IMG/VR virus record: IMGVR_UViG_2711768067_000020
Length of the DNA: 45,899 bases
Source: a virus
Taxonomy: Duplodnaviria > Heunggongvirae > Uroviricota > Caudoviricetes
Strand: one strand, 5' to 3'
The notes under the pieces are model-generated. The model was not told the DNA's origin. It made no database searches and was given only the letters and a program-made list of their open reading frames with translations. How positions within the stretch are numbered: position 1 is the stretch's first letter; each line of letters begins with the position of its first letter. Shown piece by piece: positions 40,795 to 43,771 of the stretch. A program made the translations under genes and the position numbers.

Positions 40795-40809
40795 CCCGAC
40801 AGCTTCACA

Positions 40810-40836
40810 AAACCGGAGTCCGGCTCCGGTTTTTGT
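40810..40836 (+). terminator. Rho-independent terminator after the tail fibre module
   Basis: CCGGAG-TCCGG-CTCCGG hairpin plus TTTTTGTTG. Confidence 0.6.
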
Positions 40837-40899
40837 TGTCATGTCATGGTGATGTTTGTTAAGAAAGTAAAGATTGATTCATTTTGAAGGTTGAAATGT

Positions 40900-41781
40900 A
40901 TGCTATCACCATCTTCTGTAAATTTGGGGTGTTCATGGAATTCTTTAACCAGAAACCTGACTTCTCCTGACAGTCGTATTTTATCCTCTGTAAGGGATGC
41001 AGCTGCTAGCTCGGATAATGGGGCGCAAGTAAAGGTGGGCAACAGAACATATCGTGTTGTTGTCACTGATAATAAGTTTTGCGTTACAAGAGAAAGTCAT
41101 AGTGGTTGCTTTACTAATCTGTTGCACAGGCTGGGATGGCCTAAGGGAGAGATTAGCAGGAAAATTGAGGTGATGCTGAATTCATCGCCAGTGAATAGGG
41201 CTATGGAAAGAGGTGCTGTTCATTCGAATAGACCTGATTTACCTCCTGTTGATTATGCACCGCCAGAGTTACCGAGTGTGGACTATAACAGCTTGCCTGT
41301 GCCTGGTAATGTTATTGGCAAAGGGGGTAACGCTGTAGTATATGAAGATGCTGAGGATGCAACAAAAGTCCTGAAGATGTTTACTACATCTCAAAGCAAT
41401 GAAGAGGTAACAAACGAAGTTCGTTGCTTCAACCAATATTATGGTGCCGGGAGTGCAGAAAAAATATATGGCGATAATGGCGATATTATTGGTATTAGAA
41501 TGGATAAAATAAATGGAGAATCGCTTTTAAATATTTCGTCCTTGCCGGCACAGGCTGAGCATGCCATTTATGATATGTTTGACAGGCTTGAGCAAAAAGG
41601 AATTCTTTTTATCGATACAACAGAGACAAATGTCTTATATGATCGCACGAGAAATGAATTTAATCCAATAGATATATCATCTTATAATATTTCTGAACGT
41701 TCATGGAGTGAAAATCAAATAATGCAATCTTATCATGGAGGAAAGCAAGATCTTATTAGTGTGGTATTAAGTAAAATTTAG
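40900..41781 (+). CDS. nleH: NleH-family type III effector (OspG-like Ser/Thr kinase)
   Basis: Internal ATG MLSPSSVNLGCSWNSLTRNLTSPD...; near-identical over long stretches to NleH1/NleH2 as remembered (KVGNRTYRVVVTDNKFCVTRESHSGCFTNLLHRLGWPKGEISRKIEVML; C-terminal PIDISSYN...LISVVLSKI). Confidence 0.85.
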   Translation: MLSPSSVNLGCSWNSLTRNLTSPDSRILSSVRDAAASSDNGAQVKVGNRTYRVVVTDNKFCVTRESHSGCFTNLLHRLGWPKGEISRKIEVMLNSSPVNRAMERGAVHSNRPDLPPVDYAPPELPSVDYNSLPVPGNVIGKGGNAVVYEDAEDATKVLKMFTTSQSNEEVTNEVRCFNQYYGAGSAEKIYGDNGDIIGIRMDKINGESLLNISSLPAQAEHAIYDMFDRLEQKGILFIDTTETNVLYDRTRNEFNPIDISSYNISERSWSENQIMQSYHGGKQDLISVVLSKI

Positions 41782-42004
41782 TAATTTTATCCAGTGTAGT
41801 GGATTTGTTGCATGGATGGAGTTGGTAAAAAGTGGTGTGGCTGGCAATCCAGGCCGCGTCACAGAAATGGACAATGCCGCTGAGAGACTGGCGAATGGCA
41901 TACAGGCACCAGAAAAATTTCAGACATGACATAATGCCCATGCCAGAAGTTCTTTTTGCACCTCGCCTGTATTTATAGATAAATATAGAGTGAATGAATG
42001 AGAT

Positions 42005-42853
42005 ATGAAAGACATTACCCTTCCCCCCCCGACGTCCGCGTCCTGTCTGACAGGGGCCATATCTGTAAATACTGAAGCTGTATTATCTCCCATGCAACAC
42101 ACTTCAGCCTTACATGTAAGAGATTTTGCTTCCCTGTGCTCACAGAACCTCAAAGCTAATGTATTGCTAAATAGTGATGACCACGAAGTACCTATACATC
42201 AGAAAAATCCTGCTGCAATAATGCAAAATATCGACTCTAACATCAAACAGATGGCAACAGACTGGGGGATGTCGATTGAGGAGGTTGAGGTTATTATAGG
42301 GCGAGAGAAAGGCATTGTGGAACCCTCCTGCGGAGTTACCGCTAATGCTATTATGAAACTATTTCTGGACAAGGATGGCTTCAGTTACTGCTTTGAAAAT
42401 GAACAGACACTATCGCTCGAGCAGCTTCAGGAGCGCCTGTCCTGTATGCCTGAATGTAAGAGCTTTGTATTACGTGTTAATGATGGTGCGCTTGGTCATG
42501 CTTACATTGTCGATATTCCCAAAGGAGAAAACTCTTGTCGTCCTGCATTCTTGTATCAGTCAGATTTAGGAGAGGGCGTCACCAGAAAGTTAAGATTTGA
42601 GGACTGGATGACGCATAAAGCATTGACTCCGATTTTGCTGGATGATATTTGTAATTACTTCTCCTGCATGTCTCAAAATAAGACAGATTTGGAGCAGATT
42701 GCAACGTTATTTGATATTGATGGAAATGTTAAAATGTTACGAAAGGAAAATATTCAATATCAAAAGCATGACAATTTTAGTTTCCAGTTGTTTGAGTATG
42801 ACACCGATAATATTGAAAAAAACATTGAGATAATAAAATCACTATGTAGTTAG
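42005..42853 (+). CDS. cif: Cif (cycle-inhibiting factor) type III effector, Gln deamidase
   Basis: 282 aa; counting residues puts Cys109 (VEPSCG), His165 (GALGHAYIVD) and Gln185 (FLYQSDLG) at the positions of the Cif catalytic triad as I remember it; AT-rich. Confidence 0.8.
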   Translation: MKDITLPPPTSASCLTGAISVNTEAVLSPMQHTSALHVRDFASLCSQNLKANVLLNSDDHEVPIHQKNPAAIMQNIDSNIKQMATDWGMSIEEVEVIIGREKGIVEPSCGVTANAIMKLFLDKDGFSYCFENEQTLSLEQLQERLSCMPECKSFVLRVNDGALGHAYIVDIPKGENSCRPAFLYQSDLGEGVTRKLRFEDWMTHKALTPILLDDICNYFSCMSQNKTDLEQIATLFDIDGNVKMLRKENIQYQKHDNFSFQLFEYDTDNIEKNIEIIKSLCS

Positions 42854-42956
42854 CTTTTGTTAAAACTGCAATTATTTGTAAACATAATAATAAGTATTAT
42901 GACGTTAAAATTTAACCATACGGTAAAATGATTCAGGAAAACCGGTTCAGCATAGC

Positions 42957-43328
42957 CTAGGCTGAACTTTTGAGGATATCAACGAACGGAATTTTTGAAC
43001 ATTTATGAGTAGATCGTTGTTGAAGGGCTTCAATGAGCATGTCAAGTTCATCAACTGCTGGTCTACGATTACGACGGTTTGATTTACCAATCAAAGCAAG
43101 TTTAAGTAGATATGGACGAGCACTTTTCGCCGGGTTTGATGTGTAATTAATTCCGTATATAGGTTTGGCTGCATCCAGAACACTGCCAAGATAACTAACA
43201 TCGTGACTGACTGTTGCTGGACCTGCACCAGCGTTGTTTCTCAGCCTGCAATGTTCAATTACGTCATTTTCTGTCAGTTCAGATAGTTTGATCGCGGAGA
43301 TGTCACTATCCATAAGCAGTTCTAGCAC
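42957..43328 (-). pseudogene. Recombinase/integrase-like remnant (uncertain family), fragmented
   Basis: 123-aa ORF; upstream in other frames short protein-like segments (IAAAFMLMLKHGAHRK; VMVLDLYGISSSNAVDGLTVRDLLHKYLNDQMPEVKQTVLKDMC) are separated by stops, suggesting a decayed gene up to about 43620. Confidence 0.3.
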
Positions 43329-43771
43329 ATATCTTTTAGTACGGTCTGCTTTACCTCCGGCATTTGGTCATTTAAATATTTGTGTAGTAAGTCACGGACT
43401 GTAAGTCCGTCAACAGCATTTGATGATGAAATGCCATATAGATCTAATACCATCACTTTCTGTGTGCCCCATGTTTTAGCATGAGCATGAACGCGGCGGC
43501 TATCTCACGGGTGATCATCCCTTTGGCATACTGAAAAGTATCGGGTGTTACTGAACCGTGTTGATACATCAACTGCACTGGATATTGAGTGGCCGATAAT
43601 ACCGACGTTATAACCTATAAATGCCAATCAGGCTGAATGTTGAAAGGATAGAATGAACAGCCCGACACACAAAAAACGGAGTCCGGCTCCGGTTTTTGTG
43701 TTGCCATATAAGGCAGATGTTTGTTACAGCTATTTAAGTCTGGAGTTCAAATTAAAATAGGGAGTTTTGTT

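Follow-up and report, generated by a model that had tools for sequence, protein, structure and literature searches.

The hairpin element repeated in front of nleH and nleG in the DNA analysed here (the window: the whole 45,899-nucleotide stretch of the Caudoviricetes record IMGVR_UViG_2711768067_000020) very probably acts as intrinsic terminator at the end of the late tail operon and at the same time serves an exchangeable effector locus as its cis-regulatory and recombination junction. It would form the 3′ boundary of a conserved tail-fibre module in lambda-like prophages of attaching/effacing E. coli. Two sub-parts can be told apart. The hairpin would end the late operon, and the same palindrome would be the 13-bp repeat of the nle regulatory inverted repeat (NRIR). 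The next 27 nt comprise TTGNCA, a variable 8-nt core and the box GATGTTTGTTA; this second part goes with cargo in the same direction and most likely holds a promoter core, dependent on an activator, from which the first effector gene is transcribed.

Structure of the element in the window

Two copies of about 66 nt are present in the window (Table 1). Each follows the same plan, in which a hairpin with A-tract, GC-rich stem-loop and T-tract is followed by a spacer of 16–17 nt, containing a −35-like TTGNCA, and then by the box. The hairpin has a 6-bp GC-rich stem lengthened by A–T pairs and a loop of 3–5 nt; its T-run is TTTTTGTTG. Searching the window with a 28-nt core at up to three mismatches gave two matches (with 0 and 1 mismatch) against none expected from 100 shuffles, and the 11-nt box is matched exactly at these two sites only. 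Pairwise alignment limits the homology between the copies to some 66–72 nt, from CCCGACA to TGTTA. The original prediction placed near-identical copies in front of nleH and nleG. Both copies are indeed there and both gene labels are right, but near-identity is true of the hairpin only (27 of 28 positions); from hairpin to box the spacers diverge (gtcatggt versus ataaggca). Copy 1 is shorter by one A, leaving 10 perfect pairs, which become 13 if a one-base bulge is allowed, and a single C-to-A change in copy 2 gives an internal mismatch in the stem.

Table 1 Features of the tail-fibre/effector region of the window
Feature	Position	Strand	Evidence or remark
Tail-fibre C-terminal domain gene, last late gene of the prophage	40525–40794	+	Pfam PF06820 Phage_fiber_C, E 5e-34; RefSeq annotation, identical DNA
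Element copy 1	40795–40861	+	Left flank CCCGACAGCTTCAC, 40795–40808
Copy 1 hairpin, AAAACCGGAG-TCCGG-CTCCGGTTTT	40809–40833	+	T-run adjoining
Copy 1 −35-like TTGTCA	40836–40841	+	
Copy 1 box, GATGTTTGTTA	40851–40861	+	
nleH, first cargo gene after copy 1	40900–41781	+	NCBIfam NF041316, E 1e-168; ATG 40900
cif, second cargo gene	42005–42853	+	Pfam PF16374 CIF; RefSeq annotation
Integrase gene internal fragment, mEp460 type, relic	42969–43489	-	96.6% DNA identity to mEp460 integrase gene
tfa (tail-fibre assembly) 3′ end fragment, relic	43534–43613	+	RefSeq pseudogene "tail fiber assembly protein, missing N-terminus"
Element copy 2	43661–43726	+	Left part CCCGACACAC, 43661–43670
Copy 2 hairpin, AAAAAACGGAG-TCCGG-CTCCGGTTTTT	43671–43697	+	
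Copy 2 −35-like TTGCCA	43701–43706	+	
Copy 2 box, GATGTTTGTTA	43716–43726	+	
nleG-family effector gene (DUF1076), first cargo gene after copy 2	43772–44347	+	Pfam PF06416 T3SS_NleG, E 1e-44; ATG 43772

The hairpin core folds with −15.6 kcal/mol in copy 1 and −18.2 kcal/mol in copy 2 (z about −3.8); hairpin folds overall gave −15.6, −18.2 and −20.3 kcal/mol, with z from −3.8 to −5.5. Neither copy matched any family of the Rfam covariance models, even at E up to 1. The stable GC-rich stem-loop with its T-run and the placement 3′ of a transcription unit are both as required of an intrinsic terminator, and the element carries the label “terminator” in the phage 434 record. A scan lists the hairpin of copy 2 on both strands. 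The T-run partly pairs with the A-tract, which counts against a terminator. On balance we infer that the hairpin acts as an intrinsic, potentially bidirectional terminator of the late (tail-fibre) operon, and the combination of terminator hairpin and conserved downstream box that had been proposed is borne out by its shape and by its site after the last tail-fibre gene. Rho-independent bidirectional terminators of phage operons share with the element the GC-rich stem-loop between A-tract and T-tract, and like them it lies directly after the last late-operon gene and, at tccP loci, between convergent genes. The element differs from ordinary terminators in being reported as needed also for expression of the next gene.

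The right flank contains no near-consensus −35 and −10 hexamers spaced 16–18 nt apart but a partial promoter match only, TTGNCA-N15-TGnTA with weak −10 hexamers; in none of the cargo classes does the candidate −10 (TGnTAnnnn) end in the usual T. Other −35 registers (TTGTTA, TTGTTG and TTGTCA) were tried with various −10 hexamers and discarded, the −10 being weak in all of them. A consensus sigma-70 scan of the + strand from 40795 to 40900 and from 43661 to 43772 returned no promoter-like site at threshold; the promoter positions are therefore putative.

Probable identity with the NRIR

The element is almost certainly the published NRIR, as judged from strain, genes, the 13-bp repeat length and uniqueness rather than from comparison with a printed sequence. 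Garcia-Angulo et al. (J Bacteriol 194:5589, 2012) reportedly found an inverted repeat to be essential for expression of nleH1 and nleB2. In the EPEC E2348/69 genome (NC_011601) the region upstream of nleH1 is identical to copy 1, and the hairpin is the sole inverted repeat within 560 nt upstream of that gene. Upstream of nleB2 in the same genome there are perfect 13-nt arms, ACAAAAACCGGAG and CTCCGGTTTTTGT, 5 nt apart, which are the sole inverted repeat in 345 nt. What the two upstream regions have in common is limited to the end of the tail-fibre gene, the element and some 15 further nt. According to a review (PMC7142665), the NRIR was defined in EPEC E2348/69 on nleH1 and nleB2, is found at nleB2 and at some of the nle genes, and was established as essential for nleH1 and nleB2 transcription by mutagenesis. 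The element agrees with that description on three points: it has a 13-bp inverted repeat, occupies the regulatory location of nleH1 and nleB2 in E2348/69, and is conserved in attaching/effacing pathogens 5′ of some of their effector genes. None of the papers searched, the review among them, prints the NRIR sequence. No difference between the window element and the NRIR was found; copy 1 is one A short of the arms and copy 2 has one stem mismatch. The shared regulatory unit of the original prediction is accordingly matched by a known one. A regulatory role was already published in 2012; the element is informative but not new, and the finding therefore opens no new question.

Position and distribution

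The element is not a simple local duplication confined to two copies. It was found at 6327 sites, spread over 693 of the 5426 complete E. coli genomes searched with roughly ten per genome (median 10), and all 30 genomes listed among the 693 are STEC or EPEC serotypes or isolates. The further copies that the original prediction had suggested looking for do lie by effector genes in the sample described below, the cargo that begins past TGTTA being variously NleG, NleB2, NleH, Ibe, NleL and Psr-like. Outside E. coli, a true copy was seen among 185,579 species representatives in E. albertii only; four further exact 20-mer matches, in unrelated soil/water metagenome genomes, were taken as chance.

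Position, cargo and orientation were counted in a sample of 152 oriented copies. The element begins 1–15 nt past the stop codon of the last tail-fibre (Phage_fiber_C) gene in 141 of them, and 11 copies, window copy 2 among them, are without this gene. A tail-fibre or tfa gene end lies 5′ of the element in 148 copies, in one orientation throughout. A second sample was anchored on the end of the tail-fibre C gene alone; each of its 146 gene ends leads into the hairpin or a near variant, truncated in two cases within the 3′ arm by different downstream sequence. In the window the product of this gene ends ...NIGGMK* (stop codon 40792–40794). Conservation is at least 90% across gene end and hairpin and 30–60% directly after TGTTA. 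Both edges, CCGACA and TGTTA, are sharp and recur in four left and more than 15 right contexts. As a piece of the phage backbone, the element goes with the conserved tail-fibre module and not with the effector genes, a membership that the original prediction had missed.

The element might be a pure hitch-hiker, with the hairpin serving solely as the tail-fibre operon terminator, the box being the last stretch of backbone, and the cargo merely always inserted there with no effector-gene role for either part. The tail-fibre C gene occurs in 698 genomes, nearly equal to the 693 with the element, and the adjoining gene is conserved at least as well as the hairpin, therefore conservation alone could reflect hitch-hiking with a recently spread module; the empty promoter scan between either copy and its gene also favours this reading. 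We consider it improbable, as expression of nleH1 and nleB2 could not do without the inverted repeat in the published mutagenesis summarised in the review (PMC7142665), the box stays where cargo is on the same strand and is missing where it is convergent, and the element survives in the copies that have no tail-fibre C gene, including window copy 2.

Sharp borders in so many contexts, together with an integrase fragment 170 nt from copy 2, would also suit an element that is mobile or acts in site-specific recombination (a MITE, an attC-like or a phage att site) and transports effector cassettes or picks them up. The copies are, however, not scattered but follow a tail-fibre or tfa gene end in the same orientation in all but four sampled cases; no target-site duplications were seen, and no second copy bounds the far end of the cargo units. 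The integrase fragment is that of an ordinary phage integrase, and the tfa relic lies between it and copy 2. The 21-bp prophage-in-prophage attB (Nakamura 2021) is absent from the window. A MITE or attC-like element was rejected on distribution and orientation, and we regard a mobile element of any of these kinds as hardly credible.

Variation within the hairpin is found in the loop and in the run lengths. The A-run varies from 3 to 7, the five-A form being the commonest variant (59/152). The stem sequence is almost invariant and shows no compensatory double changes; the sole change in the 3′ arm among tail-fibre-linked copies, CTCCGG to CTCTGG, keeps a G–U pair in the + strand RNA. The palindrome may instead be primarily a DNA site for a putative dimeric transcription activator of the effector regulon, its likeness to a terminator being incidental. 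This would be consistent with the perfect 13-bp palindrome in many copies, with the near-invariant stem and its want of compensatory changes, with a location some 50–60 nt upstream of a possible start site, and with the regulatory role backed by the NRIR literature (PMC7142665). It sits less easily with a palindrome that always lies 1–15 nt past the last late gene's stop codon, has terminator-like A- and T-tracts and is retained where the neighbour is convergent and the box missing. The changing A-run moves the half-sites, and the 3′-arm change preserves RNA pairing yet breaks the DNA palindrome. We thus regard a primary activator site as possible but doubtful.

Cargo, box and reassortment

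Wherever the box is present in the sampled copies, the first recognisable downstream gene is on the same strand: NleG in 56 copies, NleB2 in 20, NleH in 14, Ibe in 14, Psr-like in 6 and NleL in 5. The box is absent where the neighbouring effector locus is convergent (tccP-espJ), and the hairpin is kept there. The tfa-linked copy of phage 2B8 keeps the box and has lost the hairpin (−4.3 kcal/mol); hairpin and box are therefore separable. Left-flank and spacer classes occur in all four combinations, and spacer and cargo classes reassort likewise. These patterns of reassortment across the hairpin and across the box point to a role in recombination, in keeping with the recombination substrate for effector exchange that had been predicted. 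The same ~66 nt stand at the backbone/cargo junction in every such prophage and would therefore offer a common patch of homology where homologous recombination may swap effector cassettes.

Lambdoid phage genomes contain short conserved boundary (“linker”) sequences between modules. The element resembles these in being a short, nearly identical stretch on a module border whose flanking modules reassort; it differs from them in that its right border falls at one fixed nucleotide in all cargo classes. A border fixed in this way is better explained by a promoter or control region retained for its function than by random crossover points. Exchangeable effector loci (EEL) of lambdoid prophages were reportedly described by Tobe et al. 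in 2006. As in these loci and in “moron” cargo units, variable effector cargo takes up the stretch from the tail-fibre genes to the end of the prophage, with the element as the exact cargo start. Both terms name gene cargo, however, and not the junction sequence, and here the terminator is upstream of the cargo unit instead of closing it.

A probable composite effector locus

The nleH of the window is the orthologue of EPEC nleH1, at the same locus as prophage PP2 of E2348/69. Directly 5′ of copy 2 stand the two relics, of integrase and of tfa. RefSeq labels the former a frameshifted partial integrase, and no similarity was found between it and the prophage's own lambda-type integrase. The tfa relic is 85–95% identical to the 3′ ends of tfa in phages 2B8, HK630 and lambda imm434. 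The window would hold two copies of the element because its effector locus is composite, a fusion. Copy 1 would be the end of the prophage's own tail operon and copy 2 the leftover tail end of a second phage, made up of integrase fragment, tfa fragment, terminator and nleG...espJ; the origin of copy 2 in a fused tail end had also escaped the original prediction. The remnant of the second phage probably reached its present form by fusion and internal deletion, in an order that we can propose only tentatively. One explanation considered for the integrase relic was a second prophage, integrated in tandem at a common att site. The relic is mEp460-like and the prophage's own integrase is of lambda type; plain same-site tandem insertion is therefore unlikely, and a recombination-born fusion between different phages fits the locus better.

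Conclusions

This study adds modest refinements to what is known of the NRIR: its coincidence with the late-operon terminator, the occurrence of the box only with same-strand cargo, and the reassortment of flanks across the element. A single palindrome might do three jobs, terminating the late operon, recruiting an activator that couples some ten prophage effector loci per genome into one regulon, and providing a fixed 66-nt crossover patch for the movement of cassettes between prophages; we regard this extension as possible but doubtful. If it is true, the “NRIR regulon” would exist because phages share a terminator, and not through gene-by-gene evolution of regulatory sites. The element pinpoints, to one nucleotide, where the backbone ends and the virulence cargo starts in EPEC and EHEC prophages. 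It thereby gives one sequence handle for finding effector loci, for predicting Ler-independent co-regulation and for explaining the shuffling of effectors between prophages.

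The element and its position

The repeated hairpin element originally noted in front of nleH and nleG was confirmed, both copies being present (table of features). Scanning the window with a 28-nt core gave two matches at ≤3 mismatches against none expected, and exact matches to the 11-nt box that closes the element were found only at the same two sites. Homology between the two regions is confined to the element, from CCCGACA to TGTTA. Folding predicts that the hairpin (A-tract, GC stem-loop, T-tract) forms in both copies and on either strand.

Table. Coordinates of the features (window unless a comparison locus is named)
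Feature	Positions	Remarks
Copy 1 of the element	40795-40861	ends 38 nt 5′ of the nleH ATG
Copy 2 of the element	43661-43726	ends 45 nt 5′ of the nleG ATG
Prophage right end	40300-45899	
Tail-fibre C-terminal domain gene	stop at 40794	
Tandem duplication	37745-40530	period 1268 nt
Duplicated units compared	37745-38044, 39013-39312	88% identical
First tail-fibre copy	37936-38871	truncated
Lom C-terminal ORF	38747-39145	ends ...GVGYKF
Two small ORFs	44518-45233	WP_001002868.1, WP_000354291.1
Rfam IS009 match	43488-43573	29.9 bits; gathering score 117
E2348/69 PP4, 5′ of nleB2 (L171)	60-180	degraded tail-fibre C gene
Phage 933W (L168)	2530-2560	poly-G run
Phage 434, OL657226 (L126)	3500-6900	element and effector genes
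tccP–espJ locus (L137)	from ~4250	reverse strand

We compared 130 IMG/VR loci, gathered partly by the exact core and partly by the tail-fibre gene end. Most oriented copies (141 of 152) start directly 3′ of the stop codon of the Phage_fiber_C gene, the last late gene (protein end ...NIGGMK); seven sit behind a tfa fragment, like copy 2, and four have other left contexts. When the sample was anchored on the gene end only, the hairpin or a near variant was found behind all 146 gene ends, at two of which different downstream sequence interrupts it within the 3′ arm. The element is built like an intrinsic terminator, potentially a bidirectional one, and stands where the late operon ends. Variant sites are the loop (TCCGG, TCTGG, CCCGG, GCCGG), the lengths of the A- and T-runs and two stem positions. 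The 3′-arm change of CTCCGG to CTCTGG keeps a G-U pair in the plus-strand RNA; the 5′-arm change of CCGGAG to ACGGAG, present in tfa-linked copies including copy 2, opens a mismatch. Compensatory double changes in the stem were not seen among the hairpin variants, thus the structure is supported by shape and position and not by covariation. Over the final 230 nt of the gene and on through the hairpin, conservation stays level at 90% or more; it is lower in the 8-nt core of the spacer, rises again in the box and is down to 30–60% straight after TGTTA. In front of nleB2 in E2348/69 prophage PP4, deletions and substitutions have degraded the tail-fibre C gene but left the following hairpin and box intact.

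Cargo and the box

At least 20 unrelated sequence classes are found 3′ of TGTTA. The first recognisable gene downstream of a box-bearing copy lies on the same strand in every case and encodes an NleG family protein (56 copies), NleB2 (20), NleH (14), an Ibe/OspB-like protein (14), a Psr-like LuxR protein (6) or NleL (5). Nineteen box-bearing copies are without a match to reference genes; those inspected include nleG-type leaders with disrupted ORFs and IS-cut loci. At the tccP–espJ loci (L031, L050, L134, L137 and L165) the hairpin sits between convergent genes without the box, and homology to other copies stops directly after the T-run, TTTTTGTTG. The other box-less cases are a convergent LRR effector gene truncating the hairpin, a site interrupted by an IS and a poly-G run in place of the box. 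Since presence of the box tracks the strand of the cargo, the element comprises two sub-parts, a hairpin that goes with the late-operon end and a 27-nt right flank that goes with same-strand cargo. The poly-G copies precede the Psr-like LuxR gene (phage 933W and L004, L043, L135, L150, L157 and L166); the run varies from 7 to 11 G and could be a slipped-strand, phase-variable tract in the control region of that gene.

A composite locus

The last part of the window is the right end of a lambda-like prophage, orthologous to E2348/69 prophage PP2, that occupies the lambda attachment site between ybhC and ybhB/bioA. The gene order is J, lom, tail fibre, tail-fibre C-terminal domain gene, nleH, cif, integrase fragment (minus strand), tfa fragment, nleG, two small ORFs and espJ (minus strand). 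Two relics lie just 5′ of copy 2: a 521-nt internal integrase gene fragment, 96.6% identical to the integrase gene of phage mEp460 and unrelated to the prophage's own integrase, and 80 nt from the 3′ end of a tfa gene. Complete phages of the mEp460-integrase type have the order tail fibre, cargo, dinI, integrase. The DNA running from the tail fibre to the integrase fragment, with nleH and cif, is therefore a continuous piece of a single phage, and that from the tfa fragment through hairpin and nleG to espJ is the tail end of a second one. The integrase–tfa junction of the window recurs in phage cdtI, which however continues into cdtABC, thus the fusion is old; 242 genomes have the same 5.6-kb arrangement. 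Phage 2B8 has a tfa-linked copy with the box but has lost the hairpin, as expected for a terminator that no longer ends a working operon.

The weak IS009 match at the integrase–tfa junction probably reflects tfa-related sequence in the Rfam model and not an RNA gene. The small ORFs between nleG and espJ are conserved, without assigned function, and both are also carried by PP2; Pfam and NCBIfam searches with the first, WP_001002868.1, gave no match. The tandem duplication comprises the 3′ part of lom and the 5′ part of the tail-fibre gene, with internal collagen-like repeats in register, and the first tail-fibre copy runs into the Lom C-terminal ORF. This stretch is single-copy in reference strain 22-245.

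Distribution and probable identity with NRIR

A wider search showed that the pair is not a local duplication: 66-nt copy 1 has 6327 matches, spread over 693 of 5426 complete E. coli genomes (median 10 per genome, maximum 15), and the carriers among the matches listed are all STEC or EPEC types. With one representative for each of 185,579 species, a true copy was found only in Escherichia albertii, another attaching/effacing pathogen; four further exact 20-mer matches, in unrelated soil/water metagenome genomes, are taken as chance. Among phage records, 297 carry the element; they include many Stx phages, cdtI, 933W and the classical laboratory phage 434, whose record labels it a terminator. 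Behind it, phage 434 has an nleB pseudogene, nleC, an nleH fragment and a second metalloprotease effector gene, thus its right arm is an effector locus resembling those in EPEC/EHEC prophages.

The nle regulatory inverted repeat (NRIR) was reported in 2012 as a highly conserved sequence that contains a 13-bp inverted repeat. It is reportedly essential for transcription of nleH1 and nleB2, genes whose expression is said not to depend on Ler or GrlA and to be repressed by GrlR and H-NS. We tested identity indirectly, via the E2348/69 upstream regions of both genes. That of nleH1 is identical to copy 1, and the element hairpin is the only inverted repeat within 560 nt. The element is also present upstream of nleB2, and the single inverted repeat in the 345 nt there has perfect 13-nt arms, ACAAAAACCGGAG / CTCCGGTTTTTGT, 5 nt apart. 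Outside the element the two regions share just the degraded end of the tail-fibre gene and some 15 nt beyond the box. These comparisons make it highly probable that the element is NRIR.

Proposed working

The element would stop late and read-through transcription at the backbone–cargo border; at tccP loci the hairpin would serve both convergent units. The palindrome is said to be needed for activation of the next gene. The right flank probably carries the promoter core: in every class with the box, TTGNCA (5/6 to the −35 consensus) stands exactly 15 nt ahead of TGTTA. TGnTA could pass for an extended −10, but the −10 hexamers are weak. A promoter scan of the right flank reported no promoter, which together with the weak −10 fits an activator-dependent promoter. 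Across the hairpin as well as across the box, all four pairwise combinations of the left-flank, spacer and cargo classes are found. Since the classes differ at several positions, this is reassortment and not recurrent mutation. With about ten co-oriented copies per genome, the element is plausibly a crossover patch for swapping effector loci, judging from these patterns. The original interpretation, a terminator hairpin with a downstream box acting as shared regulatory unit or recombination substrate, was largely right.

The element has already been described, as NRIR in 2012, and the phage 434 annotation gives it as a terminator. Our contribution is modest: the element and the late-operon terminator coincide, the box depends on cargo orientation, flanks reassort across the element and the locus is composite.
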